Assembly: GCA_018696595.1 (NCBI GenBank)
Contig: JABHQW010000003.1
Span: forward strand, 64,001 to 128,000
DNA: 64,000 nucleotides
From: Candidatus Woesearchaeota archaeon
Lineage (GTDB): Archaea > Nanobdellota > Nanobdellia > Woesearchaeales > GW2011-AR9
Reading direction: 5' to 3'
Positions 32,848 through 50,189 of the stretch are shown one piece after another. How positions within the stretch are numbered: the first letter of the stretch is position 1; each line of letters opens with the position of its first letter. Both the position numbers and the translations under genes were made by a program. Under the pieces are notes generated by a model. That model was given only the letters and a program-made list of their open reading frames with translations, was not told the origin of the DNA and searched no databases.

Positions 32848-33855
32848 TTATTGATTCAAAGTTTTATCAATTAACTTTTCTCCCCAAAAGATCTTATCAT
32901 AATGAAATCTAATAAACTCATCATTTATATCTGTTCTTTCATAAACTAAATCTTTATCATTATAATTGTTATTTGGATCACTATGTATTATTTTCTTAGT
33001 CACTGGATTTATCGCTATAGACCCGTAATCAAATTCAGCATGATGATATGGACAGAGAATTATTATATTCTCTTTTACGTCTGGACCATTGTACTCGCCA
33101 CCAAGAGGTTTCAAGTGATGCCCTTCTGCATAATATTTAGAGTTTTCCAACAATATTCTTTTTCCACAAACTTGACATTTCCAATTAAAATTAGATTTTA
33201 TTCCCCTTACAAGAGCTGTATCTCTAACAATCCTTGAAGTTATAACCTCAATTCTTCCAGGACTGGTGTAATCCGGATAGGGGGGTTCGTTCACAGTAGG
33301 AACTTGAGAGTTCTCATTTCTAAATTGTACAATGAAATTAAGGCTTTCTGAGAAATCATCAAAGAGATCATATAATACAGGAGGAACTTTTGCAAAATAT
33401 TTTTGAGATACTCGCAAATCTCCCCCAGTGGGATATTCAACATAGAACATGCCTTCTTTATTTTCATGTAATATTTCTCTAAGTGAAGAATTATATTCTC
33501 TGAAGAAAGATCCAATAGTTGGAGGGGAGATTAAATTATTAAATTGACCAAGATTAATTCTTTGATAAGGAGACATGTTTGTCCATCTTTCGGGCCTAGG
33601 TGGTTCATCAATGGTTTGAATTAATGGTGTCACAACCATAGAAACGCCAGCCCAAACATATCCCTCATCAGACTTTAATAAATGAATAATGATATCACCA
33701 ACTTGAACCTCTTTCATGATTTTCCATGCTTCTGAACCGCCCCTGTCTTTTACCGGACTCCACAAGCAACTCCCAAATTCCCACCCAGAACCACCGTGAG
33801 CTGGATTTGTAATTTCAAGGAATACAGATTGGCCTTCTTTTAATTTAGGTAACAT
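32848..33855 (-). CDS. HNH endonuclease with N-terminal EVE/PUA-like domain (candidate modification-dependent restriction enzyme)
   Basis: C-terminal CQVC...AEGHHLKPLG..GPDVKENIIILCPYHHAEFD; N-terminal W..MKEVQVGDIIIH PUA-like signature. Confidence 0.8.
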   Translation of the reverse strand: MLPKLKEGQSVFLEITNPAHGGSGWEFGSCLWSPVKDRGGSEAWKIMKEVQVGDIIIHLLKSDEGYVWAGVSMVVTPLIQTIDEPPRPERWTNMSPYQRINLGQFNNLISPPTIGSFFREYNSSLREILHENKEGMFYVEYPTGGDLRVSQKYFAKVPPVLYDLFDDFSESLNFIVQFRNENSQVPTVNEPPYPDYTSPGRIEVITSRIVRDTALVRGIKSNFNWKCQVCGKRILLENSKYYAEGHHLKPLGGEYNGPDVKENIIILCPYHHAEFDYGSIAINPVTKKIIHSDPNNNYNDKDLVYERTDINDEFIRFHYDKIFWGEKLIDKTLNQ

Positions 33856-34370: not shown

Positions 34371-35789
34371 ATGTCATTAAATGTACTTGAAGATCTTAAA
34401 GAAGTTTACAAATTAATATATAAATTGCTAATTTTTCCTGAATCTGATTGGAAAACTAAGATTTATGCTTCTACAGCTATGGCTTATCTCATAAATCCTT
34501 ATGATGTTATTCCCGAAGCAGAAAAAGGAAGTGAAGGTTATATTGATGATTTATATCTTTGTTTGTTAGTTTTAAAAGATTTGTCATTGTATAGAAAGGA
34601 TCTTATTGAAATAGCCAATGATAATAGATTAGATATTCAAGAATTTGTTGAACAAAAATTGATTATTTGTAAAAACGAGTTATGCGAAAAAACTAAACTG
34701 ATTGAAAAAGTTTCTGGTTATGATTCTCTGGAAAGATTTGATATTAGAAATTCACAAGTAGATTCCAAAATATCATCACAACTTGAACAGAACTCAACAA
34801 TTCTAGGAACAATTGCATTCTTTTATGATGAACTTTTAAATGTTCAAAAAACCTATGAAGAAAGAAGAGGTATGAACAAAAGAGGACCCCCTATAAGAAA
34901 AGGTTTAGGAAGAAAGATGGATCTTCCTTATGCATACCACCACACATTCTTAGAATTAAAAGAATCTAATCTTTTTTTTGATCTTAATAGGGTCTGTTTA
35001 CAATTTAACAAAAGTGAAGAATTAAAGCTTAAGATTGATTCTAATAATTCAACAGAAGATTTATTTATGAATTACGAGGACAACTTAAAAAATTTTAATG
35101 AAGATGTAGAATATTATAAAATCATTAAATTTGCTCATCCATTATTTAAAACATTATGTAATATTTCTAATGACTCCGATTGTAGTTGGCAAATCAAACA
35201 TGAAATCAATTCAGCGTTGGCTTATTTTTCATTAGTTGATGATGTTATTGATGACACTATAGAGTCTGGTCTTGGTTATGTTGATGATATTTTTGTTGCA
35301 TCATTTGTTTTATTTGATATTGCTGAAAAAGATTTTCATCTTTTAAACAGAAATTTAGACTCTGGTTTAAGTATTACAACAATTAAAAACTTATTTGAAA
35401 GATCAAGTGAAATTATTGATAATGATTTGAGTCAAATAATTAATTTACTAGGTTTAAGGGGATTAATGTCATTTTTTGATTTAAATCAACCAAATAACAC
35501 TAATGTTTGTATTATTTCCAATCATGGTTCTAATTATAAAAAGATTTTGAATAGTTTAATTAAGCTATATTTTGTTCCAGAACTTAGTTTTGACAAGAAA
35601 TCAAACATATCAGAATACATTAAAGAAATTAATAAAAGTTTATCTGGAGATCAATTATTAAAATTAAATAAGTTTATTGAAATAGCAGAAAACAGTTGTT
35701 ATAATAAAAACATACAACAAGAATTTGAAAACAAAGAACATGAAGAGATCAGATTATTAATACTTAAACATAAAATATTATCAAGCTAA
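34371..35789 (+). CDS. Tandem DUF1232/YkvA-like domain protein with conserved C-terminal tail
   Basis: Two copies of A.AY.....D.I.....G..GY.DD (AMAYLINPYDVIPEAEKGSEGYIDD; ALAYFSLVDDVIDDTIESGLGYVDD). Stop is 1 nt before the pbeA start. Confidence 0.75.
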   Translation: MSLNVLEDLKEVYKLIYKLLIFPESDWKTKIYASTAMAYLINPYDVIPEAEKGSEGYIDDLYLCLLVLKDLSLYRKDLIEIANDNRLDIQEFVEQKLIICKNELCEKTKLIEKVSGYDSLERFDIRNSQVDSKISSQLEQNSTILGTIAFFYDELLNVQKTYEERRGMNKRGPPIRKGLGRKMDLPYAYHHTFLELKESNLFFDLNRVCLQFNKSEELKLKIDSNNSTEDLFMNYEDNLKNFNEDVEYYKIIKFAHPLFKTLCNISNDSDCSWQIKHEINSALAYFSLVDDVIDDTIESGLGYVDDIFVASFVLFDIAEKDFHLLNRNLDSGLSITTIKNLFERSSEIIDNDLSQIINLLGLRGLMSFFDLNQPNNTNVCIISNHGSNYKKILNSLIKLYFVPELSFDKKSNISEYIKEINKSLSGDQLLKLNKFIEIAENSCYNKNIQQEFENKEHEEIRLLILKHKILSS

Positions 35790-35790
35790 A

Positions 35791-37917
35791 ATGGAAAACA
35801 AATCGTTTAAAGAAATAGATGAACAAATTAAAGACACTTACTATAATTCAGAAGACAATCCCATTAAAAATTTTATGATTCCTGTTCTAAAGTGTTCTAA
35901 AATATATCGCCGCGAAACATACAGTTTTAATGCAGCTATATTTTCTTTGATTAGTGATGCTTTAGTTGATGTGTTTGAAAATGATTGTAAAATCCAGTAT
36001 ATTGTTGGCATGGAAATTAACGAAAAACATGAATTAGCAATTGAAAAAGGACTAGAAGATGAAGTAGGTCTTATTGAAAAACATTTAATTAATGATTTTG
36101 GGGACATTGAAAAATTTGTTGAAAAATTAAATAGTAAATATGAAAAAGAAAAAATAGAGAATAGGTTAAGAATGCTTAGTCTGATGATCTCAAAAGGAAT
36201 TTTAGAGATTAAAGTAGGATTTAAATGTAAAAGGGGAAAACCATTAGACCCTCGTTGGGCAAAATTCCACCCCAAAGTTATGATTTTTACTGATTTTGAA
36301 GGAAACTCAATTGTTACAAATGGATCACCTAATGAGAGCGAAGGTGGTGGAGACCGTAATGAAGAAGCATTTGATGTATTCAAAAGTTGGGACATTGGAT
36401 CCAAAAAATGGTTTGATAGACATTGGGCAAAGTTTGATGAATTTTGGGATAATACTAAGGAAAACGTAAAGACTATTGAAGTAAGTAAATTAATTGAAAG
36501 TAATGTTCTTAGAAAATATAGAAGTAGATCCAAAACTAAAGGAGAAATGATCAATATTGAAAAAGATTTAAACAAGCTGTTGGAAATGGAAAAAAAGGTG
36601 GATCAAACTGAAGAAAATATCCCTAAAGAATCAGGAGAGATAGAATTACGACATTACCAAAATGAGATTATTGATAATTGGTTTAAAGAAGACTCTAAAG
36701 GAATTTATGCACTTTGTACAGGAGCAGGTAAAAGTATTACTGCTATTCGCACTATTAAAAGATTATTGAAAAATCATCCTAAAACCATTACAATTATTGT
36801 TGCACCATATATCCCCCTTTGTGAACAATGGATACAAGTTTTAAAAACTGAGAATATAACCCCATTAATGGCATATAAGTCAATGGAATTATGGTATAAA
36901 TCATTAAAACATAAATTACTTTCATTTCAAATGGGTGGAACTGATTCGATATTTATTATCACAACAAATAAAACATACTCTAGTGATGAATTTCAAAATT
37001 TATTGAATAATTATTGGAAAAATTGTTTTTTAATAATCGATGAGTGCCATCATTTTGCTAGTACAACATACAGATCAACATTAAATGAGAGAATACAATT
37101 TAGGCTAGGTCTTTCAGCAACCCCGGAAAATGAGATGGACAGAGAGGGAAACATGGTGTTATATCGTTTTTTTAAGAAAAATATACCTCCTGAATATTCT
37201 TTAAAAGATGCTATCATTGAAGGTTACTTAAACAGATATGATTATTATCCAATAATTAATGAACTTGATGATCAAGAAAATGAAAATTTTGAGGAAATAA
37301 CTTTAAGAATATTAGCTGCTAAAAAAGATGGTGACTTTAAAAAAGTTGAAACCATATCTAAAGAAAGAGATGTTCTAATAGATACTTCGAAAACAAAAAT
37401 CCCAAATCTTTCAAGACTATTAGATCAGATTGAAGATTTATCACATTCGTTAATTTATTGTTCTGGAACTAAACAATTAGAACAAGTTTCAAGACTATTA
37501 AAGGAAAAAGGAATAAATTTTGGAAAAATTACTTCTGATGAAACCGCAAAAGAAAGATATAATATGATCGATCAATTTAAAAAAGGATTTATTAAACTTC
37601 TTTTGAGCATAAGAATACTTGATGAAGGTATAGATATTCCAGCAATTAAAACTGCAATGATATTAAAAAGTTCAGCAAGATCTCGACAAGCAATTCAGAG
37701 AAGGGGAAGATGTTTAAGATTATTAAAAGATGAATTTGGAGAGATAATTGATAAAAATGCTAGAATTTACGACTTTGTCACTTTGCCAAGGTCAAAATTA
37801 GATGTGGTTAAAGAATCATATGGTCTTGAAATAAAACGAATAATGGAATTCGTAACTTTATCAAACAATTCAAAAGAAGCAGAAAAGATTATAAAAGATC
37901 ACTTCCCTTATGTTTAA
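35791..37917 (+). CDS. pbeA: PbeA-like: PLD-type nuclease fused to SF2 DEAD/DEAH helicase
   Basis: FHPKVMIFTD + GSPN PLD motif; LRHYQ, CTGAGKS, IIDECHH, GLSATP, LDEGIDIP, QRRGRCLR; first gene of a four-gene block before dnd. Confidence 0.8.
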   Translation: MENKSFKEIDEQIKDTYYNSEDNPIKNFMIPVLKCSKIYRRETYSFNAAIFSLISDALVDVFENDCKIQYIVGMEINEKHELAIEKGLEDEVGLIEKHLINDFGDIEKFVEKLNSKYEKEKIENRLRMLSLMISKGILEIKVGFKCKRGKPLDPRWAKFHPKVMIFTDFEGNSIVTNGSPNESEGGGDRNEEAFDVFKSWDIGSKKWFDRHWAKFDEFWDNTKENVKTIEVSKLIESNVLRKYRSRSKTKGEMINIEKDLNKLLEMEKKVDQTEENIPKESGEIELRHYQNEIIDNWFKEDSKGIYALCTGAGKSITAIRTIKRLLKNHPKTITIIVAPYIPLCEQWIQVLKTENITPLMAYKSMELWYKSLKHKLLSFQMGGTDSIFIITTNKTYSSDEFQNLLNNYWKNCFLIIDECHHFASTTYRSTLNERIQFRLGLSATPENEMDREGNMVLYRFFKKNIPPEYSLKDAIIEGYLNRYDYYPIINELDDQENENFEEITLRILAAKKDGDFKKVETISKERDVLIDTSKTKIPNLSRLLDQIEDLSHSLIYCSGTKQLEQVSRLLKEKGINFGKITSDETAKERYNMIDQFKKGFIKLLLSIRILDEGIDIPAIKTAMILKSSARSRQAIQRRGRCLRLLKDEFGEIIDKNARIYDFVTLPRSKLDVVKESYGLEIKRIMEFVTLSNNSKEAEKIIKDHFPYV

Positions 37918-37922
37918 ATAAA

Positions 37923-38093
37923 ATGAAAGAAATTAAAAACATATTAGAGAATATGAAATGTCCTGAGGAGAATCAGATTTTACTTATTGAAACACTTAAG
38001 AGTTGTAAATATCATAGATCTGATAAGAATAATAAAGAAATAATCTTACAAATATATTCTACACTTAATAAATTGATGAAAAATGAAAATTAA
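37923..38093 (+). CDS. pbeB: PbeB-like small protein (56 aa), absent from the ORF track
   Basis: Hand translation MKEIKNILENMKCPEENQILLIETLKSCKYHRSDKNNKEIILQIYSTLNKLMKNEN*. It fills the pbeA-pbeC gap and overlaps the pbeC start by 11 nt. Assignment is positional only. Confidence 0.6.
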   Translation: MKEIKNILENMKCPEENQILLIETLKSCKYHRSDKNNKEIILQIYSTLNKLMKNEN

Positions 38094-40101
38094 AGAAATG
38101 AAATTGAAGAATTTCAAAGCATATCGTAATGAAGAACTAAAATTCAGTACAGATAAGGAAAAAAATGTCACATTAATTTATGGTGTTAATGGAGCGGGTA
38201 AAACTTCTTTTTTTCAGGCATTGAATTGGGGTTTATATGGGTATGATGTGATTGGTACAAACAACACAATCTCCTCAATGAAAACAATTGCAGGAAAATA
38301 TTTATTGGATGAATTATCTGAAGGAGAAACTGAAGAAGTAAAAATTGAAATTCAATTTGAAAACGATGGATATGATTATACATTAACAAGGATTGCACAT
38401 TTTATTAAAAAAAATAATGAGCTTTCTTACTTAATGAAAAATGATTTCCTGAGTTTGTACTATGTCTCTGATATGGGTAAACCAAGTATGATTAAAAATG
38501 ACTCATTGGATCAAGAACAAAAAATATCAAGAATCATAAACAACGTTCTTCCTTTCGGTTCTAGAGAGTACTTTTTATTTGATGGTGAAAATTTAGCTAA
38601 TTACTCAGAAGCCAATAAACACCAATGTCTCGAAATTAAAAATGCAATTAGACAAGTATTAGGGTTAGATGACTTTGATATTGCTATTAAAAATATAAAA
38701 GCGGTTAATGATCAATTAAGAAAAGATTTCGAGAAAAAAGAATGTTCTGAAAAGATAAATGACACCAATAATGTGATTGGAGATTACCAGGAAAGACAAA
38801 CAAAAATTAGCAAAGAAGTAATTTCTCAGAGATATTTATTAAAAGAAAAGAATACTGAATTTACAAAAAATGAAGATTTATTGAAATCTTTTCATCAAGA
38901 AATAGAAAAAATAGAAAAAAGAAGTGAAATTGAAAAAGAAATTGAATCAATTAAAATTACACTTTCCTTAAATTTAAAAGAATTAAGGTCTGTTTTGACT
39001 CAAGGTTATATGTGTTATTCAGAATCAATCCAAACAGAATGTTTTAATTTGCTAACATCATGGAGAAAACAAAATAAATTTCCAACTAAATATTATAATC
39101 TTGATTTTGTAAAAAATATTATCCAAAATAAAAAATGTTTTTTTTGGGATTTTGAAGAAAATAGTGAAGAACATAAATTCTTTTTAAAAGAAGAAGAAAA
39201 ATTACAAAATTGGGGACATAATATTCAAAATGATCTAACTGATTTTTATGGTAAAGTTTCTTCATTAAAAATAGGATCAAAAAGTTTAATTAAAGATATA
39301 AGTGAACAACATAAAGTATATGTACAAACTGAAACAAAATTTAGAGAACATATTCTTGCTCACGAGGAAATTAACAAAGAAATAAAATCCAAAATAACCG
39401 ATAAAGAAATTCAAGAATGTAATAATAAAAGAGAAATCATTCAAAATGAGATTCTTAAAGTTAGTACAAACATTAAATCACTTACTGAACAATCTATACT
39501 TTTTGAAGAAGAGATTAGAAAAGCAAATTCCCTCTTAAACTCTATGAAAAGTAAAACTGTAGAGGGAAAGAAAATTCAAGATAAAAAGAAATTAATAACT
39601 GAATCAATTTATTGGTTAAAACAATTATATGAACACTATTCTCAAATTAAACGACAAGAAGTTGAGAAACACATGCAAGACTTATTTAGAAATATTCTTT
39701 GGAAAAAACAACACTACCAGGATGCTAAACTAACCTCAGATTATAAATTAACATTACCTGACAAATGGGGAGATGCCGGAGAAGATCTGGTTTCAAAAGG
39801 AGAAGGCCAAGTATTAATATTAAGTTTTGTGGCAGCATTAGCAAAGTCTACAAATGATGAAGCACCATTTATTATTGATACTCCTTTTGCAAGAATTTCA
39901 ATAGAACCTACAATTAATATTGCAAAATTCTTACCAGAGCAAGTTTCACAATTAGTTCTTTTTGTTACTGATAAAGAATTAACTACCGAATCTGAAAGAT
40001 TATTTACTGAAAAAACCCAATATGTTTGGACAATAAAGTTTAATGAGGAAAATTCAGAAACAAATATTATAAATGGCAAACAAGTCAAAACAGAATATTA
40101 A
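38083..40101 (+). CDS. pbeC: PbeC-like SMC/Rad50-type ATPase
   Basis: GVNGAGKT, FLFDGE, long coiled coil, signature VSKGE, Walker B FIIDTPFARIS. Confidence 0.8.
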   Translation: MKIKEMKLKNFKAYRNEELKFSTDKEKNVTLIYGVNGAGKTSFFQALNWGLYGYDVIGTNNTISSMKTIAGKYLLDELSEGETEEVKIEIQFENDGYDYTLTRIAHFIKKNNELSYLMKNDFLSLYYVSDMGKPSMIKNDSLDQEQKISRIINNVLPFGSREYFLFDGENLANYSEANKHQCLEIKNAIRQVLGLDDFDIAIKNIKAVNDQLRKDFEKKECSEKINDTNNVIGDYQERQTKISKEVISQRYLLKEKNTEFTKNEDLLKSFHQEIEKIEKRSEIEKEIESIKITLSLNLKELRSVLTQGYMCYSESIQTECFNLLTSWRKQNKFPTKYYNLDFVKNIIQNKKCFFWDFEENSEEHKFFLKEEEKLQNWGHNIQNDLTDFYGKVSSLKIGSKSLIKDISEQHKVYVQTETKFREHILAHEEINKEIKSKITDKEIQECNNKREIIQNEILKVSTNIKSLTEQSILFEEEIRKANSLLNSMKSKTVEGKKIQDKKKLITESIYWLKQLYEHYSQIKRQEVEKHMQDLFRNILWKKQHYQDAKLTSDYKLTLPDKWGDAGEDLVSKGEGQVLILSFVAALAKSTNDEAPFIIDTPFARISIEPTINIAKFLPEQVSQLVLFVTDKELTTESERLFTEKTQYVWTIKFNEENSETNIINGKQVKTEY

Positions 40102-40108
40102 ATAGAAG

Positions 40109-40549
40109 ATGAATCAATCAAGAAACCCACCCATCCACATTAATGAAAAGTTTAATATGAGATATAGTCTTTACTCTAATCCACAACACAAAAGAAACAC
40201 TGATGAAAAGGAGTTATTATTTTTCTCTAGGATGGTTGATTTATTTATGTTAGCTACAATTCATGGCTTTAAAGAAGGATTAAGAATTCCCTTTGAAAAA
40301 CCAAGTGAAAAAACTGATATTTTCAAATGGAGCAATTTTAAAGACGAAGATTTGACAATTATTAAATCAATAGGATTATTAGAGCTTATTAGAATTGGAA
40401 ATGAGGATCCGAACATTATTAATGATAAATCAAGAATGGTTGAAATAATTCAAGAATATGCTAATGGGGGATTTCAAGATTTAATGGAAATATTAGAAGA
40501 GAACCCTGACTTTGAAGGAAATTTCATTTCATTAATACTAACAAAATAA
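40109..40549 (+). CDS. pbeD: PbeD-like protein
   Basis: Helical 146-aa ORF (F....DLFMLA...G, IQEYANGG) in fourth position of the block; assignment mainly positional. Confidence 0.6.
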   Translation: MNQSRNPPIHINEKFNMRYSLYSNPQHKRNTDEKELLFFSRMVDLFMLATIHGFKEGLRIPFEKPSEKTDIFKWSNFKDEDLTIIKSIGLLELIRIGNEDPNIINDKSRMVEIIQEYANGGFQDLMEILEENPDFEGNFISLILTK

Positions 40550-40669
40550 TTTAGTAACTCAAATAAACCACTAATTGGATTACGTTTAATCCGTTCAAAA
40601 GGAAGTCTATTTTATTCACTTGGAAGTTAAACTGAAAGTTTATATATCATTTAATTCTTAGAACTTTTT

Positions 40670-41779
40670 ATGGTGATAAAAAAAGAGGTTAGTTCAAATG
40701 CTTTCTCATTTACTGCATTAAGAGGCATTCAGTCTGGAAGAGAATATTATGTTGCAATGTGTCCATTAAGATTAATTCCTAGAATATTCTTATTTAACGA
40801 AATGGAAATCCCCCCCCATATGAGGGCACAAAGAACTCTTAATAAAGCAAGAGTTCCTGAAATGGCTTCATATATGATTAAAAATAATGATTATATTTTT
40901 TCATCTATTACTGCATCTATAGATGGAGAGATTCTATTTGAACCGATTGAGGATACTGGTCATAAATCTAAAATGGGAACTCTGAGCGTTCCTATGAGTG
41001 CTAGATTTTTAATTAATGATGGGCAGCATAGAAGAGCAGCAATAGAAAAAGCTTTAGCAGAGAAGCCAGAATTAGGTTCTGAAACAATCTCTGTAGTGTT
41101 CTTCCTTGATGCTGGATTGAAACGTAGCCAACAAATGTTTGCAGATCTTAATAAAAATGCGGTAAAACCTACAACTTCATTAAATATTTTATATAATCAT
41201 AGAGATGAGTTTTCAAGATCCATTATTTCACAATTAAATAATATACCTATTTTTGGAAATCAGTTAACTGAATTAGAAAAAACATCTATTTCAAATAGAG
41301 CCAAAAAGGTTTTCACTCTAAATAGTATTTATCATTCAACAAAATCATTTTTAGGTAAAAAAGAAAAAACCCCAGTTATATCTAATGATGAAAAGAAATT
41401 GGTTTCTGAGTTTTGGAATGAAGTTCATAATAATATTTCTGAATGGCAAGATGTTGTTAATGATAAGATCACTCCTTATGGATTGAGACAAGATTATGTT
41501 CATGTTTCCGGTGTTGTTCTTCATGCTATAGGTAGAATGGGTCATAAACTAATAAAAGATTATCCCAATAATTGGAAAATAAAACTAAAAAATCTTCAAC
41601 AAATTGATTGGAAAAAATCAAATCCCATTTGGGAAGGAAGAGCCATGCAAAATGGAAGATTAAGTAAAGTAAATACCAATTTGATTTTAACAAGTAATTA
41701 TCTTAAACAGCAAATGGAAGTTCCATTAAGTAAAGCAGAGATTGAAATTGAAAAAATAATAACAGGCGGATCAAAATAG
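40670..41779 (+). CDS. dndB: DNA sulfur modification protein DndB (DGQHR domain)
   Basis: RAQRTLNKARV, FSSITAS, LINDGQHRRAAI, QQMFADLN; own TTTATATA promoter. Confidence 0.9.
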   Translation: MVIKKEVSSNAFSFTALRGIQSGREYYVAMCPLRLIPRIFLFNEMEIPPHMRAQRTLNKARVPEMASYMIKNNDYIFSSITASIDGEILFEPIEDTGHKSKMGTLSVPMSARFLINDGQHRRAAIEKALAEKPELGSETISVVFFLDAGLKRSQQMFADLNKNAVKPTTSLNILYNHRDEFSRSIISQLNNIPIFGNQLTELEKTSISNRAKKVFTLNSIYHSTKSFLGKKEKTPVISNDEKKLVSEFWNEVHNNISEWQDVVNDKITPYGLRQDYVHVSGVVLHAIGRMGHKLIKDYPNNWKIKLKNLQQIDWKKSNPIWEGRAMQNGRLSKVNTNLILTSNYLKQQMEVPLSKAEIEIEKIITGGSK

Positions 41780-43179
41780 TTAAAGAATCTATATTTAAAA
41801 GTAGAAAATTAAAAGACATTCACAAAGAGATACAAACGGTTTATTTAAGTGATGATAGACCTTGGGTTATTGGATTTAGTGGAGGAAAAGATTCTACAGT
41901 TATTTTACAACTAATTTGGTATGCATTATCCGAATTACCAAAAAATAAATTAAAAAAAACTATACATGTTATTTCTTCAAATACTTTAGTAGAATCACCT
42001 ATTTTAATTAATTATGTTGGAAAGATTCATAAGTTGATCAATAGCAAAGCAAAAGAGCAAGGGATTCCAATTACTGCCACACACATTTTTCCCAAAGTAG
42101 AAGACACTTTTTGGGTTAATTTAATTGGAAAAGGTTATCCTGCACCAACAAGAATGTTTAGATGGTGTACAGAAAGGTTAAAAATTAAACCCGCTGATGA
42201 GTTTATTTTTAATACAGTAAGTAAGTATGGTGAAGCAATCGTTGTTTTAGGAGTTCGTAAAGAGGAAAGTACTTCAAGAGAACAAAGTATGAATACTTAT
42301 AAAATTCAAGGTTCTTTGTTATCAAAGCATTCAAAATTCTCACAGGCGTATGTTTATACCCCCATTGAAGAATTTACTGTGGATGATGTTTGGTCATATT
42401 TATTACAAAAAAAGTCTCCTTGGGGAGCTAATAATAGGGAACTATTAACAATGTATTCTGATAAGAATAGTGGAGAATGTCCATTAGTAGTAGATAATAC
42501 TTCTCCTAGTTGTGGTGGGTCTAGATTTGGTTGTTGGACTTGTACATTGGTTAAAAAAGATAAATCAATGGATAATCTAATCTCTAGTGGTGAAAAATGG
42601 ATGCAACCTTTGTCTGATTTTAGAGTTAAACTATATGAAACAACAGATCCTGAAAAAAAGTATAAATTTAGAGATTTTAAGAGTAGAAGAGGTTTTGTAA
42701 GGTTAAAAAATGATGGAAGCGGAAAAATTGCTAGAGGCCCATACAAATTCTCTTATTGTAAGGAATTGTTATTAGAATTATTAAAAATTCAAATGAAATT
42801 TAATGAACAAGGGATTGATTTTCAGGTAATTAATGAAAATGAGATTCATGAAATTAGGAAAATTTGGCGTAATGAAAGAAATGATTGGGAAGACTCAATT
42901 CCAAAAATGTATGAATCAGTATTAGGGAAAAGCCTTAATTGGGTTCAAGATGATTTCGGGGAATTTTCGGTTTCTGAAAGAGAATTATTGAAAAGAATCT
43001 GTGAAAAAAATAATGTCTCAACAGATCTAATATTAGAATTATTAGATGTAGAAAAACAATTCCAAGGAATGACCCGTAGAGCAAATATTTATGCCAAACT
43101 AGGATCGACATTAAAAAAAGAATGGAGGTCTGAAGAAGAATTTTTAGATTCTTTAAAAAAGAAAAATGAAAATAAATGA
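41776..43179 (+). CDS. dndC: DndC (PAPS-reductase-like sulfurtransferase); probable non-canonical ATA start
   Basis: The frame is open from 41752 and contains RPWVIGFSGGKDST upstream of the track's TTG 42034. Also GYPAP..RWCT..LKI, GVRKEES.SR, RFGCWTCT and GPY. Confidence 0.9.
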   Translation: MVKESIFKSRKLKDIHKEIQTVYLSDDRPWVIGFSGGKDSTVILQLIWYALSELPKNKLKKTIHVISSNTLVESPILINYVGKIHKLINSKAKEQGIPITATHIFPKVEDTFWVNLIGKGYPAPTRMFRWCTERLKIKPADEFIFNTVSKYGEAIVVLGVRKEESTSREQSMNTYKIQGSLLSKHSKFSQAYVYTPIEEFTVDDVWSYLLQKKSPWGANNRELLTMYSDKNSGECPLVVDNTSPSCGGSRFGCWTCTLVKKDKSMDNLISSGEKWMQPLSDFRVKLYETTDPEKKYKFRDFKSRRGFVRLKNDGSGKIARGPYKFSYCKELLLELLKIQMKFNEQGIDFQVINENEIHEIRKIWRNERNDWEDSIPKMYESVLGKSLNWVQDDFGEFSVSERELLKRICEKNNVSTDLILELLDVEKQFQGMTRRANIYAKLGSTLKKEWRSEEEFLDSLKKKNENK

Positions 43180-45130
43180 AGTTAAATTAAATAATTATGG
43201 CCTGTATCATGGCACTCAAACTTTTGATCTTAGAACTACTGGTTCTAAAAATATAATCCTAATTGGTGGAGAGAATGGGCATGGTAAAACAACTTTATTT
43301 GATGCCATAAAACTCGCACTATATGGAAAGAAGTCCGCAGATTTTAGTTTAACTAATCAAGAATATCAAGAATTATTATTCAGTAAAATTCATGACTCTG
43401 CTAGTGTTGAATCGGCAGATCATGCTGGAATAGAAGTGGAATTTGAACATTCAGTTCTAGGAGAAATTAATAAATATCGAATTAAGCGATTTTGGAATGT
43501 ACGTAACAATAAAATTATTGAAGATTTTGAAGTTTCCCAGAATGGAAAAACTCTGGATGATTTCTCTTTTGAACAATGGGAAGATTTTATTAATGACTTA
43601 ATTCCTCAAGGATTGGCAAAATTATTCTTTTTTGATGGAGAAAAAATACAAAATTTAGCAGAAGATAAAAATAATCAATATTTATCTGATGCATTTAAAA
43701 GTTTATTAGGTATAGATTTAATTGAAAAATTAAAAGCTGACCTTAGAATATATTTAATTCGGAATACAAACGGGAAAGAATCTTCTGACATTGAAAAAGA
43801 AGTAACTAAATTAAATAAAAATAAAATCATTTTATCAAAACAAATTGATGGTATAGACTCAAATATTGAGAAAAATGATTTATTTTTGAAAAAAAACATC
43901 AAACAAATAAAATATCTTGAGAATGCACTCTCTGTAAAAGGGGGGAATTTTGCTCGTGATCGTGATTCTTTGAAACAAAAATCAAACGAATTGGATGTTA
44001 AAATTAATTTTTGTGAAGAAAAAATACGTTCAATGTGTAATGAACAATTACCTTTTATTTTTTCTCCAAAATTAAATTTATCTCTTTTAACTAGATTAAA
44101 AGTTGAAAGAGAGTCAAAACACAACCAAATTGCTTTTGATAAGGTGATCTCTGCCATAAAAGAAATAAAAAATGAATTAGTTAGCAGTAAGAAAAATGAT
44201 AAATCAGTTTTGAATATTTTGGATAACAAAATTAAAAGCTTCAATATTGAAGGAGACCAAAATGAAGTTCACAAAATATCAGATAGTCACTTTTTTAGAC
44301 TTACAAATTTAATTGGAACAGATATTGATGAAACCAAAAAAGGATTTATTAATTTAGTTAAGGACCACGAACAATTAACTTATAAAAAAACAAAATTAGT
44401 AAAACAATTAGGAATTGTCCCTGATGAATTGGATCTAAAGCCTTACTTTGAAAAATTAGGTAAGTGTAATAAAAAATTAGGAGAATTTAATTCATTTAAA
44501 AAACAGTTGTTAGAAAAGAAAAAAACTTTTGATTTCAAAATAAATCAGTTAGAAAGAGACATTGATAAAAAAATTGATATGATCAGGACAATTAATAAGA
44601 AAGATGAAATTATCCAATCAATAAGCAAGGTAGAATCTGTTTTAACTGAATATCATGGTAAATTGCATGATTTTAAAATGAAAGAATTTTCTAAATATTT
44701 TCTTATGTGTTTTGATAGTATATCTAAGAAGAAGAACATTTTTTCAAAAGTAGAATTAGATCCTAAAACATTTAATGTTTATTTATGGAAATATAGTAAT
44801 AATAAGAGGATCTCAAAGAATCAACTTTCTACAGGAGAAAAACAATTATATGCTATTGCTGTTTTATGGACATTAATAAAAATATCTCAAAGACCTCTTC
44901 CTTTTATTATTGATACTCCCTTAGCCAGACTTGATGTTAAAAATAGGAATAATATTGTCAATAATTTTTTTCCCAATGCAAGTCATCAAATCATTATCCT
45001 CTCAACAGATACTGAAATTGATCAGAATTATCATGGTATTCTGAAAAATAAAATTTCAAGAGAGATGGTTTTAGATTTTAATGATGAGAAAACAAGAATA
45101 ATTCCTGGTTATTTTTGGGGTGAAAAATGA
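43166..45130 (+). CDS. dndD: DndD (SMC-like ATPase)
   Basis: GGENGHGKTTL, LALYG, FFFDGEKI, LSTGEKQL, IIDTPLARLD, QIIILSTDTEI. Confidence 0.93.
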   Translation: MKINEVKLNNYGLYHGTQTFDLRTTGSKNIILIGGENGHGKTTLFDAIKLALYGKKSADFSLTNQEYQELLFSKIHDSASVESADHAGIEVEFEHSVLGEINKYRIKRFWNVRNNKIIEDFEVSQNGKTLDDFSFEQWEDFINDLIPQGLAKLFFFDGEKIQNLAEDKNNQYLSDAFKSLLGIDLIEKLKADLRIYLIRNTNGKESSDIEKEVTKLNKNKIILSKQIDGIDSNIEKNDLFLKKNIKQIKYLENALSVKGGNFARDRDSLKQKSNELDVKINFCEEKIRSMCNEQLPFIFSPKLNLSLLTRLKVERESKHNQIAFDKVISAIKEIKNELVSSKKNDKSVLNILDNKIKSFNIEGDQNEVHKISDSHFFRLTNLIGTDIDETKKGFINLVKDHEQLTYKKTKLVKQLGIVPDELDLKPYFEKLGKCNKKLGEFNSFKKQLLEKKKTFDFKINQLERDIDKKIDMIRTINKKDEIIQSISKVESVLTEYHGKLHDFKMKEFSKYFLMCFDSISKKKNIFSKVELDPKTFNVYLWKYSNNKRISKNQLSTGEKQLYAIAVLWTLIKISQRPLPFIIDTPLARLDVKNRNNIVNNFFPNASHQIIILSTDTEIDQNYHGILKNKISREMVLDFNDEKTRIIPGYFWGEK

Positions 45131-45492
45131 ATGACTTTACTAGAATGAGAATATCTAATGATGCTACTTTCAAATTACGCTCTTTAAAACAAAGAACAGG
45201 ATTAACTCCAAATTTATTGTGTAGGGTTGGTTTATGTTTCTCATTGGAAAATGACCTACAAAATGATCTGGTTCCCTTAGATGAAGATGGGCAAGAGTTT
45301 AATCGTCAAACTTTATTGGGTGAAAATGACTTATTTTTTATTTCACTCATTAAGGAAAAATGTGCTTTAATGGGATTAGATTCTGAAAAAGATTTTATGC
45401 AACAATTTAAGTATCATTTGAATAATGGGATTTTAGTCTTACATGGAAGGGTTAAAAGTTTAACTGATTTAACAAACCTTATTGAAAAATGA
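45127..45492 (+). CDS. dndE: DndE
   Basis: RTGLTPNLLCR..LCFSL, GQEFNRQTLLGE; ATGA overlap with dndD. Confidence 0.9.
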   Translation: MNDFTRMRISNDATFKLRSLKQRTGLTPNLLCRVGLCFSLENDLQNDLVPLDEDGQEFNRQTLLGENDLFFISLIKEKCALMGLDSEKDFMQQFKYHLNNGILVLHGRVKSLTDLTNLIEK

Positions 45493-46607
45493 AAATAATC
45501 TATTGTGATAATAACTCCACTACTCAAGTAGATAAGAAAGTACTAAATGAAATGTTGCCTTACTTTTGTGAGAAATTTGGTAATGCTTCTAGTATTGACC
45601 ATGTTTATGGAAATGAATTATTACCTGAGATCAAGAAAGCAAGAGAGTCTATTGCTAAAGTAATTAATTGTGATTTTGATGAAATTATATTCACTAGTGG
45701 TGCTACTGAATCTAATAATTTGGCAATTATGGGCACAGTTGAGCAGTTAAAAGAAAAAGGAAATCATATTGTTACTTCTTCAATTGAACATAAATCAATT
45801 TTGAATGTTTGTCAAGAATTAGAAAAAAGAGGTTTTCAAGTTACTTATGTTTCTCCTGACAAGAGCGGAGTGTTGAAATCTGAAGATATTAAGTCTGCAA
45901 TTACTGATCAAACTATATTGATTTCGATTATGGGTGCCAATAATGAAATTGGCACTATTCAACCTATCAAAGAAATTGGCATTATTGCTAAAGAAAAAGG
46001 AATTGTATTTCATACTGATTCTGCACAAGCTTTTGGAAAAATTTCTTTAGATGTAAATAATATTGATTTAATGTCAATATCATCGCATAAAGTGTATGGT
46101 CCTAAAGGAATTGGTGCTTTATTTATTAGAAGAGGAGTAAAAATAAAACCTATCATTTTTGGTGGTGGCCAAGAAGGAAAGATACGACCAGGCACCTATA
46201 ATGTTCCAAGCATAGTTGGTTTTGGAAAAGCAAGTGAATTAGTTTCATTAAAGAATCAAGAATTAATTAAAAATTTAACTATGAATTTATATGATCGTTT
46301 GTCTGAACATGTCCAACTAAATGGAGATCTAAATAATCGTATTCCTGGAAATCTAAATTTGTTTGTTGAGGATGTTGATTCAAAAGCTTTAATTAATGAA
46401 GTAAAGACAAGTCTTGCAATTTCTGCAGGTTCCGCTTGTAATAGTGATGAAGTAACTCCTTCTCATGTTATTCTAGCTTTAGGATATGATGATAATAGAG
46501 CATATAGTAGTATTAGAATTGGATTAGGAAGATTTACAACGGAAGAAGAAATAAATAAAGTGGTAAATGTTTTAATTCCAGCAATTAAGAAACTGAGAAA
46601 TTTATAA
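45489..46607 (+). CDS. dndA: Cysteine desulfurase DndA/IscS
   Basis: YCDNNSTT, FTSGATESNN, SSIEHKS, HTDSAQ, SSHKVYGPKG (PLP lysine), SAGSAC catalytic Cys; ATGA overlap with dndE. Confidence 0.92.
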   Translation: MKIIYCDNNSTTQVDKKVLNEMLPYFCEKFGNASSIDHVYGNELLPEIKKARESIAKVINCDFDEIIFTSGATESNNLAIMGTVEQLKEKGNHIVTSSIEHKSILNVCQELEKRGFQVTYVSPDKSGVLKSEDIKSAITDQTILISIMGANNEIGTIQPIKEIGIIAKEKGIVFHTDSAQAFGKISLDVNNIDLMSISSHKVYGPKGIGALFIRRGVKIKPIIFGGGQEGKIRPGTYNVPSIVGFGKASELVSLKNQELIKNLTMNLYDRLSEHVQLNGDLNNRIPGNLNLFVEDVDSKALINEVKTSLAISAGSACNSDEVTPSHVILALGYDDNRAYSSIRIGLGRFTTEEEINKVVNVLIPAIKKLRNL

Positions 46608-46623
46608 ATATAAATTATAAAAT

Positions 46624-46998
46624 TTAATAATCATTCCCCAAAATCTTGTGTTTAAGCAATAATAATCTGATCTCATGATTCTCCTGATTCTCAAGTTTTC
46701 TTTTAATATTCTCACTTAAGTTTTTCCCGCTTTTATCAATTACTTCTTTAATAATACTAAACACTTTCCGTGATCTATCAATTAAGGGGAATATTGATTC
46801 TACTTCTTCATGTGTCATCCTTCCTAGACGGCATATGGAATACTCTCCATTACCTTGTTTAAATTCTTTAATTATTTGTAACTTTGGATTCCCTTTGTTA
46901 TAAGAATATATTACTATTCTAAATTTAGTTTTTCCTATGTTCACAGATTCTGAGAATAATTCAAGATCTAAATTAACATCATATCCAAATTTAGTCAT
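46624..46998 (-). CDS. PC4/YdbC-like ssDNA-binding-fold protein with conserved C-terminal tail
   Basis: D..LFSESV...K.RIVIYSYNKGNPKLQI......GEY...RLGRMT.EE pattern. ATG 46998 forms an ATGA overlap with the upstream stop (track start 47058 is likely too long). Confidence 0.65.
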   Translation of the reverse strand: MTKFGYDVNLDLELFSESVNIGKTKFRIVIYSYNKGNPKLQIIKEFKQGNGEYSICRLGRMTHEEVESIFPLIDRSRKVFSIIKEVIDKSGKNLSENIKRKLENQENHEIRLLLLKHKILGNDY

Positions 46999-48413
46999 TT
47001 CACCAACTCCCTCAACGCTTCTACAATCCAGATCATACCTTCGGTATCTAACTCGCAATACTTAAGCAGATCATCACGGACATCTTCACCGCCGTTGAGC
47101 ATCTTTACAAATAACAAAGAAGCAGTATCGCCATCAGAGATTTCTAAATGAGAATAATCTTTACCAACAATCGCAGGTAAGACTTTCTTTAAAGAAGCTG
47201 AACCTTTCTGTTTAAGATTGTAATAATGAAATTGTCTGAAAGGAACAATTAAATCAACCACTCTACTAACTACGCCCTCAACCCAATCTTTATATTCAGG
47301 AAATACTAAACCTAACTCTCGTAACCGACCAATCTCAAAAGATTGATTATATGTTACAATAGTTCCAGAAGAACCTAAAACTTCTTTCAAAGCTTTAAGA
47401 AATTCTAAGCGACAATCTAATTTAGAACCTAAAAACTCATAATGCTTATCATTAACATGTAAAGACCATTGAAACGGAATTTGTTGGTATGGTTTAGTTC
47501 CATCTAAAATAGGAACAGCTGACCGAAAAGTTTCGAAATCTAAATAGTATAGTTCACCTTTCAAAGTATTAAGAAACTTTTCAATCTCTTCTTTATTTAC
47601 ATGAACTTTTCCATTAATCTCACATTGATGTTGAATACCTTGTTTATCAGATAATTTAAACTCAGAAGGAATGTCTTTCAATTCTAAAATTCCATCTTCA
47701 TATAACTGAAAACTTTTCTTCCCACCACGAGATAAATCAAAAACACTTGAAGAAGGTAAAAATCCCCAACATCCATCTTCTAAAGGACAATCGTAAGGGT
47801 CAGCACAATCTGACGAAATCTTTACAGTAGGACAAACATTAGATCTCATTACTTTAAGCATTTCATCAATCTTTTCTTTAATTCCTGTAACTTCACTAAC
47901 TAAAGAAGTAATATCTTCTTTAACAAAGAACTTTACAGGGTCTATCTCTCCATCTTTAACAAACTTATTATTAACATGCATTAAAAAACAATTCTTAATT
48001 TTCAAACCACATAAAGAATAAACATATTTCTGAAATGCAACATCTTGAATATTAATTTTTTTAACAGAAGCGCCAGATTTAACTTCAATAATGTCCCAAC
48101 CATCTTCATTAGGAACAAGAACGTCTGCCCGAGAATAAACTTCTCCATCTGAATAGGCTGCTTCGAATAAAGGTTTGCCTTCAGACAATAGTTTTCTTGA
48201 ATTAATCAAACTTCCTTTAAAATCAGCTTCAGGGATATCAATGCCTTCTGGAAACATTTTCTTTGCTAACTGACCAACGATATGACCTTGATCAAACTTA
48301 TGTTTAGTAGCTAAATCATGTTCAGGAATTTTATCTTTCTCATGCAAATCTATCCAGAAGTACTTTAAACATTGTAGTCCGACTAAGTATCTTGATTTTG
48401 TTAATAATGCCAT
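46995..48413 (-). CDS. DUF2779-type protein (Cas4-like PD-(D/E)xK N-terminus + RNase-H-like C-terminus)
   Basis: LTKSRYLVGLQC, RADVL..WDIIEVKS, DVAFQ.Y, YYLDFET..YQQIPFQWS, YN.SFE, SLKKVLP, YCELDT. Confidence 0.82.
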   Translation of the reverse strand: MALLTKSRYLVGLQCLKYFWIDLHEKDKIPEHDLATKHKFDQGHIVGQLAKKMFPEGIDIPEADFKGSLINSRKLLSEGKPLFEAAYSDGEVYSRADVLVPNEDGWDIIEVKSGASVKKINIQDVAFQKYVYSLCGLKIKNCFLMHVNNKFVKDGEIDPVKFFVKEDITSLVSEVTGIKEKIDEMLKVMRSNVCPTVKISSDCADPYDCPLEDGCWGFLPSSSVFDLSRGGKKSFQLYEDGILELKDIPSEFKLSDKQGIQHQCEINGKVHVNKEEIEKFLNTLKGELYYLDFETFRSAVPILDGTKPYQQIPFQWSLHVNDKHYEFLGSKLDCRLEFLKALKEVLGSSGTIVTYNQSFEIGRLRELGLVFPEYKDWVEGVVSRVVDLIVPFRQFHYYNLKQKGSASLKKVLPAIVGKDYSHLEISDGDTASLLFVKMLNGGEDVRDDLLKYCELDTEGMIWIVEALRELVK

Positions 48414-48476: not shown

Positions 48477-50189
48477 CTATTCTAAGCCAAATTTTCTTAA
48501 CCTACTTCTTATAGCACCCGGTTGTCGTTTTAGAATTCTAGCAATTTCATCAACTGAAACAGATAGTTCAAATAACCTTCTTAATCTATCATCATCATCT
48601 ACGCCCCAAGAAGCATAAGCATTTGGAGATGTTTCTTGTATTTGTTCTATTCTTTTATGATAATCAGTTTTAATATTTACTTTCTCACTCTCAGTTGTAT
48701 GATCATTAATTACATCTAAAAATGCTTCTCCATAATCACTTAACTTGTTATGACCAACACCTTTAATTTGTAAAAATTCTGCATTATTCTTTGGCAAGTA
48801 TGAAACCATCTCTCTTAAAGAAACATCTCCAAACACAATGTAAGGAGGACAATTTTTTCTTCTGGCAATTTTCAATCTTAAAGCTCTTAACTTCTGAAAT
48901 AAACCAGTATCTACCCCAGAGACTACTATTTTCTTAGAAACTGTTCTTCCCTTAGAGACCACTTCAGAAACCCCAGAAACAACTTTTATCCCAAGACCGC
49001 CTTTACAGATATCACACCCGTTACAATTATTCCCAGAATATGACTCCCCTAAATATTCTAAAATGCTCTTTCTCCGACATAATGAACTTTCACAAAAACT
49101 CATCATTCTGTTCAACTTGTTTAATGCAGTACTTTTCATTAAAGGATTATAAATATTTTTAAGAAAAAATTTATGTTTTATAATATCGCCTCTTGAATAA
49201 AATAAAACACAATCACTGGAAAGTCCATCACGTCCTGCTCTACCAATCTCTTGATAATATCCTTCTAGTGATTTTGAAAACGTATGATGGATTACTAATC
49301 GCACGTCAGGCTTGTCTATCCCCATCCCAAAAGCAATTGTAGCTACAATTATATTTACTTCATCTTTGATAAATAGATCTTGATTCTTCTGTCTTAATTC
49401 ACTAGAAAGACCTGCATGGTATGGTAAGGCGTTAAATCCACCCTCCCTTAACTGTTTAGCAACTTTCATTGTATCTTTACGAGAAAAACAATAAATGATT
49501 GTAGGTTCACCCTGATGTTTTTTTACCAAACCCAATATTTTGTTAAAAGTCTTCTTTTTCTCAGTAACAATTATGTTTAAATTTTCTCTATCAAAACTTG
49601 AAATAAATGTTTGTGGATTTACTAATGCTAATTGTTTTAGAATATCTTCTCTAACTTTTAATGTGGCAGTTGCTGTTAAAGCAATGATGGGCGTTTCAGG
49701 AAATAAAGTTTTGAATAATTTTAAATTTCCATAATCTTTACGAAAGTCATGTCCCCATTCAGAAATACAATGTGCTTCATCAATTGCTATTAAACTGATG
49801 TTAAGTGTTAATAAAAATCTTTTAAATTTTTCTAATGCTAATCTTTCAGGAGCAACATAAAGAATTTTAACATCATTCTGTTTAATTCTTTCTTTAATCT
49901 CTTCAATTTCACTATAAGAAAGAGTAGAATTAATAAATTCTGCTTTAATTCCATTTGCTTTTAAGTTATCAACTTGATCTTTCATTAAAGAAATCAAAGG
50001 TGAAACTACAATGGTAAGTCCTTCAAGTTGAATAGCAGGTATTTGATAACAAATTGACTTCCCTCCACCAGTTGGCATTAGAACCAGTGAATCTTTCTTT
50101 TGTAGAACACGATTAATAATATCTAATTGTAATGGTCTAAATTTATCATAACCAAAATGTTTTTTTAATAATAATTCCATACTTGACAA
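48477..50189 (-). CDS. recQ: RecQ helicase with HRDC and terminal Myb-like HTH
   Basis: MPTGGGKS, SPLISLMKDQV, IDEAHCISEWGHDFR, ALTATAT, YHAGL, TIAFGMGIDKPDVR, YYQEIGRAGRDG, CRR, HRDC (PPYIVFGDVSLREM). Confidence 0.95.
   Translation of the reverse strand: MSSMELLLKKHFGYDKFRPLQLDIINRVLQKKDSLVLMPTGGGKSICYQIPAIQLEGLTIVVSPLISLMKDQVDNLKANGIKAEFINSTLSYSEIEEIKERIKQNDVKILYVAPERLALEKFKRFLLTLNISLIAIDEAHCISEWGHDFRKDYGNLKLFKTLFPETPIIALTATATLKVREDILKQLALVNPQTFISSFDRENLNIIVTEKKKTFNKILGLVKKHQGEPTIIYCFSRKDTMKVAKQLREGGFNALPYHAGLSSELRQKNQDLFIKDEVNIIVATIAFGMGIDKPDVRLVIHHTFSKSLEGYYQEIGRAGRDGLSSDCVLFYSRGDIIKHKFFLKNIYNPLMKSTALNKLNRMMSFCESSLCRRKSILEYLGESYSGNNCNGCDICKGGLGIKVVSGVSEVVSKGRTVSKKIVVSGVDTGLFQKLRALRLKIARRKNCPPYIVFGDVSLREMVSYLPKNNAEFLQIKGVGHNKLSDYGEAFLDVINDHTTESEKVNIKTDYHKRIEQIQETSPNAYASWGVDDDDRLRRLFELSVSVDEIARILKRQPGAIRSRLRKFGLE

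Follow-up and report, generated by a model that had tools for sequence, protein, structure and literature searches.

Defense systems of the PbeABCD type (CxC-ABC-ATPase/DndE-anchored) were described by Xiong et al. 2019 (PMC6459918) and Krishnan et al. 2024 (PMC10853773). The original study observed replication arrest without DNA cleavage (PMC6459918); PbeA was later argued, on the basis of sequence analysis, to carry out cleavage (PMC10853773). Here, we analyzed a stretch of 64,000 nucleotides (nt) from a Candidatus Woesearchaeota archaeon (assembly GCA_018696595.1, contig JABHQW010000003.1, positions 64,001 to 128,000 of the forward strand), hereafter called the window. The system that it encodes belongs to the PbeABCD/CxC-ATPase-anchored family coupled to Dnd, and PbeA, a putative small PbeB, PbeC and a putative PbeD are found in the canonical order beside dndBCDEA. 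Two proteins that bracket this locus, one with tandem DUF1232 units and one with a PC4-like fold, end in the same C-terminal module, which is the subject of this work.

In contrast to the described PbeABCD systems, the window and at least nine further loci of archaea have a tandem-DUF1232 gene translationally coupled before pbeA, this gene often follows a PD-(D/E)xK/Cas4-like nuclease, and the lineage of the window adds a PC4-like protein with the DUF1232 tail. The DUF1232 gene is a fifth gene of the Pbe operon for which we found no description in PMC6459918 or PMC10853773. The same holds for the tail, as had been supposed in the original prediction, made from the DNA alone: in text searches, DUF1232, YkvA, PC4, Cas4 and DUF2779 were not found in PMC10853773, which also yielded nothing relevant when searched further, and the words "DUF" and "accessory" were not found in PMC6459918.

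As for the families of the two carriers, the first repeat of the DUF1232 protein gives a significant Pfam match to YkvA/DUF1232 (PF06803) and its core fits a YkvA cluster model. Unlike in that family, two units are fused here and are followed by a helical C-terminal region of about 100 amino acids (aa) that ends in the module. A search of the DUF1232 literature found no functional study. The PC4-like carrier is predicted to have the beta-beta-beta-beta-alpha core of the PUR-alpha/PC4 (Whirly-like) binders of single-stranded nucleic acids (human PURA 8chu, Borrelia 3nm7, phage T5 4bg7), yet it gives no Pfam sequence match, its structural Z-score stays below 8, and its 44-aa C-terminal extension has no counterpart in those structures or in its own paralogues.

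A further point of comparison is offered by the tails of single-stranded DNA (ssDNA)-binding proteins, namely the C-terminus of E. coli SSB (SSB-Ct), T7 gp2.5 and T4 gp32, which are short, disordered and carried by oligonucleotide/oligosaccharide-binding (OB) folds. By analogy, the module would resemble them in its acidic-then-hydrophobic C-terminus and in being carried by a small nucleic-acid binder whose gene has helicase and nuclease genes nearby (PbeA, RecQ, Cas4-like). In contrast to these tails, it is predicted to be a structured helix-loop-helix of about 40 aa without sequence similarity to them, and it is found on a non-DNA-binding protein as well; it is not a member of the SSB-type docking-tail class.

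A shared C-terminal module in two unrelated proteins

The two carriers and their modules are positioned in the window as follows.

34371..35789, + strand: YkvA-like protein with tandem DUF1232 units (472 aa), whose gene opens the pbe operon and which carries the module natively
35661..35786, + strand: C-terminal module, the last 42 aa of the DUF1232 protein (core 35727-35780), from multiple alignment and an AlphaFold2 (AF2) model
46624..46998, - strand: PUR/PC4-fold protein, 124 aa, with the grafted module, from an AF2 model, structure matches and paralogues
46627..46752, - strand: grafted module, residues 83-124 of the PC4-like protein, beginning where the paralogues end (core 46639-46692)

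The 472-aa open reading frame (ORF) of the tandem-DUF1232 protein (34371-35789, +) has the C-terminus ...ENKEHEEIRLLILKHKIL-SS, or, over a longer stretch, ...ENKEHEEIRLLILKHKILSS, and the PC4-like ORF (46624-47058, -) has the C-terminus ...ENQENHEIRLLLLKHKIL-GNDY, or, likewise extended, ...ENQENHEIRLLLLKHKILGNDY. The 18-aa core tails, at 35727-35780 (+) and 46639-46692 (-), share 14 residues, seven of which are specified by differing synonymous codons, and 40 of the 54 nucleotides are identical; our recomputation reproduced exactly the positions and counts from which the original prediction had started. With BLASTP of the two carriers, the match grows to 28 aa (16 identical and 25 similar, E 2e-7 for the pair), no alignment being found outside this tail, and the multiple alignment reveals a looser similarity spanning around 40 residues. 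A profile derived from DUF1232-family tails only was run, as a chance control, against the complete 1.19-Mb genome, translated in six frames into 15,222 ORFs, and retrieved the PC4-like ORF at E 1.5e-8, with the runner-up ORF at 0.37. A motif scan of the same genome found no third copy of the module.

In the full-length DUF1232 homologues, the module reads ...FIE, a loop with an invariant Asn, an acidic stretch, LLLLK[HY][KE]IL and then 2-4 variable residues; the last helix of the module has an acidic first half followed by a Leu-rich basic end (LLLLKHKIL). The bodies of the two proteins are unrelated, as had been proposed, one being all-helical and YkvA-like and the other a four-strand-plus-helix PUR/PC4 fold. 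Each tail is a copy of a single portable C-terminal module, a helix-loop-helix of about 40 residues, and the two copies are homologous. We are highly confident of the homology of the tails, their graft, selection, rarity and Pbe linkage, taken together. An HbYX-type proteasome-docking tail (...NDY), a PIP box and a MIM motif were considered for the endings and rejected, since these vary among the carriers (SS, GNDY, GEL, ESS).

Rarity of the module and selection on the peptide

A search with the 42-position module profile against 1.84 billion representative proteins yielded nine matches at E <= 1e-3. Every one of them belongs to the DUF1232 family or to the tailed PC4-like proteins, including one 69-aa fragment of a DUF1232-family protein, which bears out the expectation that the tag is tied to Pbe/Dnd and not widespread. 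No third module carrier was seen among the ORFs of the fetched loci, and scans of IMG/VR with the module and PC4-like alignments returned no relatives and hence no viral source or mimic.

Judging from codon comparisons, both copies of the module are under purifying selection on the peptide. Between the PC4-like gene and its orthologue in locus L001, the ratio of non-synonymous to synonymous substitution rates (dN/dS) is 0.056 for the module (over 42 codons, 15 differences are synonymous and 9 non-synonymous) and 0.17 for the core. Between the DUF1232 gene and that of locus L030, it is about 0.09 for the module and 0.33 for the preceding 130 codons. The synonymous sites between the two modules of the window are saturated; the graft is old, and a DNA repeat or a recent gene conversion is excluded, in line with the earlier claim that selection acts on the peptide.

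The DUF1232 protein as the native carrier

The Pfam DUF1232 profile (37 residues) matches residues 30-65 of the 472-aa protein, i.e., the first repeat, at 36.4 bits against a gathering cut-off of 23. The AF2 model of the protein (predicted local distance difference test, pLDDT, 80.5) is entirely helical, with the module comprising the last part of helix 426-442, the loop that follows and helix 448-471. Residues 41-367 of the model superpose on a 142-aa YkvA cluster model (template modeling score, TM, 0.84 over 137 aa, root mean square deviation, rmsd, 1.9); because the superposition is limited to these residues, the last 100 or so residues form an appendage on the YkvA-like core. Foldseek of the model against PDB gave no match below E 0.1. 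The protein had been predicted to be probably membrane-associated, which found no support: no transmembrane-like segment was found, the top 19-residue Kyte-Doolittle mean being 1.46, in a segment with three Asp.

We found 17 homologues of the DUF1232 carrier. Those of full length all end in the module motif, even where identity is as low as about 35%. Of 13 distinct contexts, 10 (the window, the P0008, P0010 and P0019 contigs, and loci L023, L024, L025, L029, L030 and L054) have the carrier immediately before a PbeA-type gene, and the two genes overlap or are no more than 1 nt apart. This adjacency persists where dnd is inverted (L024) or where only a phosphoadenosine phosphosulfate (PAPS)-reductase gene is nearby (L025). 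Both a Methanofastidiosum metagenome-assembled genome (MAG; L023) and a MAG labelled Thermoplasmatales (L029) have the DUF1232 gene directly before PbeA. One exception is P0007, where a 189-aa gene intervenes between the DUF1232 carrier and PbeA; the two others are DUF1232 relatives in a SecDF-X-Lon housekeeping context with the degenerate tail ...RKLLELRQKLLTT. These two Pbe-unlinked relatives score 8.5 and 13.7 bits with the module profile, versus 27.9 and 31.3 bits for two Pbe-linked proteins that are similarly diverged and were not among the profile-building sequences; the comparison, of two against two, suggests that the module is well kept only in Pbe-linked members. The module is the native C-terminus of a tandem-DUF1232 family that heads a distinct archaeal pbeABCD clade. 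The PbeA proteins beside tail-bearing DUF1232 proteins have in common an N-terminal signature and an 11-residue insert, which shows co-inheritance with the tailed DUF1232 protein and is no proof of contact.

Within the taxonomic order of the window, three more PbeA-bearing genomes have shorter, single-DUF1232 proteins upstream of pbeA (280-314 aa, or a pair of 274 and 238 aa), in most cases with a PDDEXK_1/Cas4-like nuclease ahead of them, and three other PbeA-bearing genomes have no DUF1232 neighbor. The DUF1232 family is therefore a recurrent, optional partner of PbeA. The gene arrangement PDDEXK_1/Cas4-like nuclease, DUF1232 protein, PbeA recurs in loci L033, L034, L035 and L025 and on the P0010 contig. 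In the genome with the split DUF1232 part (G138, locus L035), the first of the two genes, of 274 and 238 aa, encodes a zinc ribbon.

The PC4-like protein and its grafted tail

The most likely start of the PC4-like protein is the ATG at 46998, which gives 124 aa; this codon forms an ATGA overlap with the stop of the DUF2779/Cas4-like gene and has a GGAG-type tract upstream. Its AF2 model (pLDDT 86.5) consists of four strands, helix 63-88, and helices 96-103 and 105-116. The best PDB matches are PUR-alpha repeats (residues 10-81, Z-score 7.4, rmsd 1.8 over 66 aa), followed by weaker fold matches to the phage T5 PC4 homologue and Borrelia Pur-alpha, with Foldseek probabilities of 0.89-0.98. The nearest clusters in the ESM Atlas are PF02229 PC4, and a Pfam search of the sequence gave no family match even at E 10. 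"PC4-like" is a reasonable label at the level of the predicted fold.

Tail-less paralogues of the PC4-like core, 77-78 aa in length, occur on contig C5 of the same genome and, among 58 related genera, in 33; they stop exactly at the residue where the module begins; thus, the module was added to a copy of a housekeeping-type protein. This 77-78-aa PUR/PC4-fold protein, found at C5:97389-97619 and in loci L010-L016, has no Pfam family and looks like an uncharacterized housekeeping nucleic-acid binder.

Tailed versions are very rare and comprise those of near-identical strains, an 84% homologue (P0004) and a 70% homologue (P0005). The P0004 gene is also convergent on dndA and has a 172-aa gene and a PDDEXK_1 nuclease ahead of it. 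P0005 retains the module motif, and the next gene starts two bases past its stop, with one base between; a search for the P0005 neighbor with the first 113 aa of PbeA as the query returned only an unrelated 124-aa fragment on another contig. Besides that of the window itself, no tailed PC4-like protein was found among 401 sampled genomes of the phylum, and a Joint Genome Institute (JGI) metagenome scan with the PC4-like alignment gave no relatives. Both carriers recur in one other metagenome (L030/L031) as 88% and 84% orthologues with identical gene junctions. In this sole further pair in which co-variation of the tails can be followed, one E-to-D change is matched and one K-to-E change is unmatched, which is too few to interpret.

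In locus L001, of a sister lineage, the nuclease (Pbe-type PDDEXK_1) is 43% identical to one located upstream of DUF1232-PbeA in another genome. Positions 1519-2037 of this locus, which separate that nuclease from the tailed PC4-like gene, encode a 172-aa protein. It shows a weak similarity (hhalign probability 55%, hidden Markov model score 14.8 bits) to the region after the second DUF1232 motif, and it may be the remnant of a disrupted DUF1232 gene. This weak evidence hints that the tailed PC4-like gene could have been born by insertion into a second nuclease-DUF1232 unit.

In the corresponding locus of a congener (L057, G002:C77), a very basic 141-aa protein is encoded at 3207-3632, between a PDDEXK_1 nuclease and dndA. 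It was tried as a third carrier, as it ends in ...LLLIKQK..., yet its score against the module profile is negative.

Organization of the Pbe-Dnd locus and its island

The genes of the locus and its flanks, identified with PADLOC, Pfam and NCBIfam, are listed below.

29546-32377, + strand: UvrD-like helicase, on the island flank opposite RecQ
32848-33855, - strand: HNH nuclease, just upstream of the pbe operon
35791..37917, + strand: PbeA, an HKD/PLD-like nuclease fused to a superfamily 2 (SF2) helicase (PADLOC PbeA, 557 bits)
37923..38093, + strand: PbeB-position protein, 56 aa, the ORF between pbeA and pbeC
38083..40101, + strand: PbeC, a DndD-like ABC ATPase (PADLOC PbeC, 254 bits)
40109..40549, + strand: PbeD-position protein, 146 aa, by conserved position and weak profile matches
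40670..46607, + strand: dndB, dndC, dndD, dndE and dndA, phosphorothioate modification (Pfam)
46995..48413, - strand: DUF2779 protein with an N-terminal Cas4-like PD-(D/E)xK region (Pfam DUF2779, 132 bits; weak PADLOC Cas4)
48477-50189, - strand: RecQ helicase, next after the DUF2779 gene

The two carrier genes converge on the pbe-dnd block from either side, as first described, and each had been taken to be coupled to an operon of its own. This is so for the PC4-like gene, through its ATGA overlap with the DUF2779 gene. The DUF1232 gene, in turn, is separated from pbeA by one base between stop and start (TAA-A-ATG) and is therefore the first gene of the pbe operon, not a separate unit. PbeA matches Pfam ResIII and Helicase_C and, weakly, PLDc_2 (E 2e-4, below the cut-off), with a single HxK at residue 160. 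The 56-aa ORF in the PbeB position matches no family and no PADLOC or NCBIfam model; ORFs of 54-77 aa occupy this position in related loci. A literal CxC motif was not found in the PbeC sequence, in which residues 311, 320 and 352 are the cysteines closest to the center of the coiled coil. The PbeD-position protein gives weak matches to TIGR04062 dnd_assoc_4 (38.6 bits, cut-off 74) and PADLOC PbeD (E 0.006).

All five DndBCDEA members, among them the PAPS reductase-like DndC and the cysteine desulfurase DndA, are present together, as judged from Pfam matches: DndB (437 bits), PAPS_reduct with Sp-DndD, AAA_23/SMC_N, DndE (90.7) and Aminotran_5 (261). In DndC (41752-43179), PAPS_reduct is matched only from position 73 when translation is taken from the first standard start, a TTG at 42034; the N-terminal nucleotide-binding part of the protein would be missing unless translation begins upstream at a non-standard codon.

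The window and contig C65 of the congener G001 are collinear as far as about 28556 and again from about 50645. Since G001 is devoid of the approximately 22-kb stretch in between, this stretch behaves as an island, which contains the UvrD and HNH genes, DUF1232-pbe-dnd, the PC4-like gene, DUF2779 and RecQ. Homologues of RecQ and DUF2779 are found elsewhere in G001, and the G+C content of the pbe-dnd core is 25-29% versus 30-35%. At its PC4-like end, the island has an accessory slot of variable content. The HNH nuclease matches the NCBIfam model "phosphorothioated DNA-binding restriction endonuclease" at 41.9 bits, below the cut-off and in the HNH region only. UvrD and RecQ form a second flanking pair with a shared piece, a 67-aa module (UvrD residues 728-794, RecQ residues 503-569; 39% identity, E 2e-11 for the pair) that is internal in UvrD and C-terminal in RecQ; tblastn of each copy against the genome at E <= 1 returned self matches only.

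Proposed role and alternative explanations

We favor the reading that the module would mediate a protein-protein interaction and so tie its carrier to the Pbe machinery. Recruitment of both carriers to a common partner, as put forward in the original prediction, is plausible. Among candidate partners, the PbeA nuclease-helicase, the only invariant neighbor and a co-inherited one, would come first, followed by the Cas4-like nuclease, a recurrent neighbor of both carriers, and then by pairing of one module with another. A Cas4-like/PDDEXK nuclease is found upstream of the tail-bearing gene, immediately or one gene off, in the window, L001, P0010, L025 and P0019. Through the graft, a single-stranded-nucleic-acid binder might gain access to the site that the DUF1232 subunit uses. 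The module on the PC4-like protein could then play a part analogous to the C-terminal tails by which bacterial SSB and phage T7 gp2.5, both ssDNA binders, are linked to helicases and nucleases. In its full form, which we offer tentatively and regard as rather doubtful, the proposal is that a portable "Pbe-docking" hairpin adds an undescribed accessory layer to phosphorothioate defense in archaea, in which the DUF1232 subunit and, in some lineages, the PC4-like ssDNA binder dock on PbeA or the Cas4-like nuclease; the system would thereby sense single-stranded intermediates of replication and link this to the way in which Pbe blocks the replication of viruses. For the whole statement, that of a portable, grafted, selected and Pbe-linked module together with a docking role, we judge the chances to be about even.

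Several points weigh against a docking role. The co-inheritance of the tail with a PbeA clade is indistinguishable from functional coupling. The module has pLDDT of about 80-90 in both monomer models, which fits a folded hairpin that is structural or self-associating. A degenerate last helix survives in DUF1232 relatives that have no Pbe neighbor; hence, the ancestral role of the module need not be Pbe-specific. The sample of tailed PC4-like proteins is tiny and covers three distinct lineages. In the congener G002, whose dndDEA is 95% identical to that of the window, an unrelated 141-aa gene occupies the PC4-like slot, so that the PC4-like carrier is dispensable, an optional add-on confined to certain lineages. 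The Pbe cassette of haloarchaea, with its four genes, also functions without such a protein (PMC6459918), and, together with G002, this makes the layer as a whole dispensable.

Two of these points, the high pLDDT of the module in both monomer models and the diverged but recognizable last helix in DUF1232 relatives outside Pbe loci, equally favor the main rival explanation, possible but improbable, that the module is a folding or self-association element, e.g., one that forms a four-helix bundle in homodimers, with no shared third partner and no Pbe-specific role. PUR/PC4 folds dimerize through their C-terminal helix, and the PC4-like protein could have kept the module because PUR/PC4 proteins act as dimers. 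However, the motif is well conserved in Pbe-linked members only, the housekeeping PC4-like paralogues do without it in 33 of 58 genera, and its sole outside acquirer is located in the same defense island.

As for the origin of the PC4-like tail, it could be a neutral relic of a gene fusion or recombination, such as insertion into a second nuclease-DUF1232 operon, and the layout of L001, with its 43%-identical PDDEXK_1 nuclease, 172-aa protein of weak similarity to the DUF1232 family and tailed PC4-like gene, could be the scar of such an event. That the tail is neutral is nevertheless very improbable, as the dN/dS of the module (0.056) is below that of the core of the same protein (0.17), synonymous change is saturated, and the motif is retained in the 70%-identical P0005. 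A similarity at the DNA level (inverted repeats at the ends of a mobile island, a site of recombination or a common regulatory element), which the inverted placement of the copies around the pbe-dnd block and their 15-nt exact run in common might suggest, is hardly credible, since only 74% of the core nucleotides (40/54) are identical and the synonymous sites are saturated, related loci have a single copy without an inverted partner, the island boundaries at about 28.6 and 50.6 kb are well outside both tails, and a 15-nt inverted match is, by a rough estimate made without a shuffle test, close to chance in 64 kb of AT-rich DNA.

Significance

A conserved, tightly coupled tandem-DUF1232 fifth gene in an archaeal Pbe clade is a concrete component to test. 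A second testable handle on Pbe defense is the rare, selected module, which was transferred to a putative ssDNA-binding protein of this island. In practice, such work is limited by the origin of the carriers from uncultured small-genome archaea. DUF1232/YkvA is, to our knowledge, a widespread family without a known function, and the Pbe linkage would give it its first functional context.

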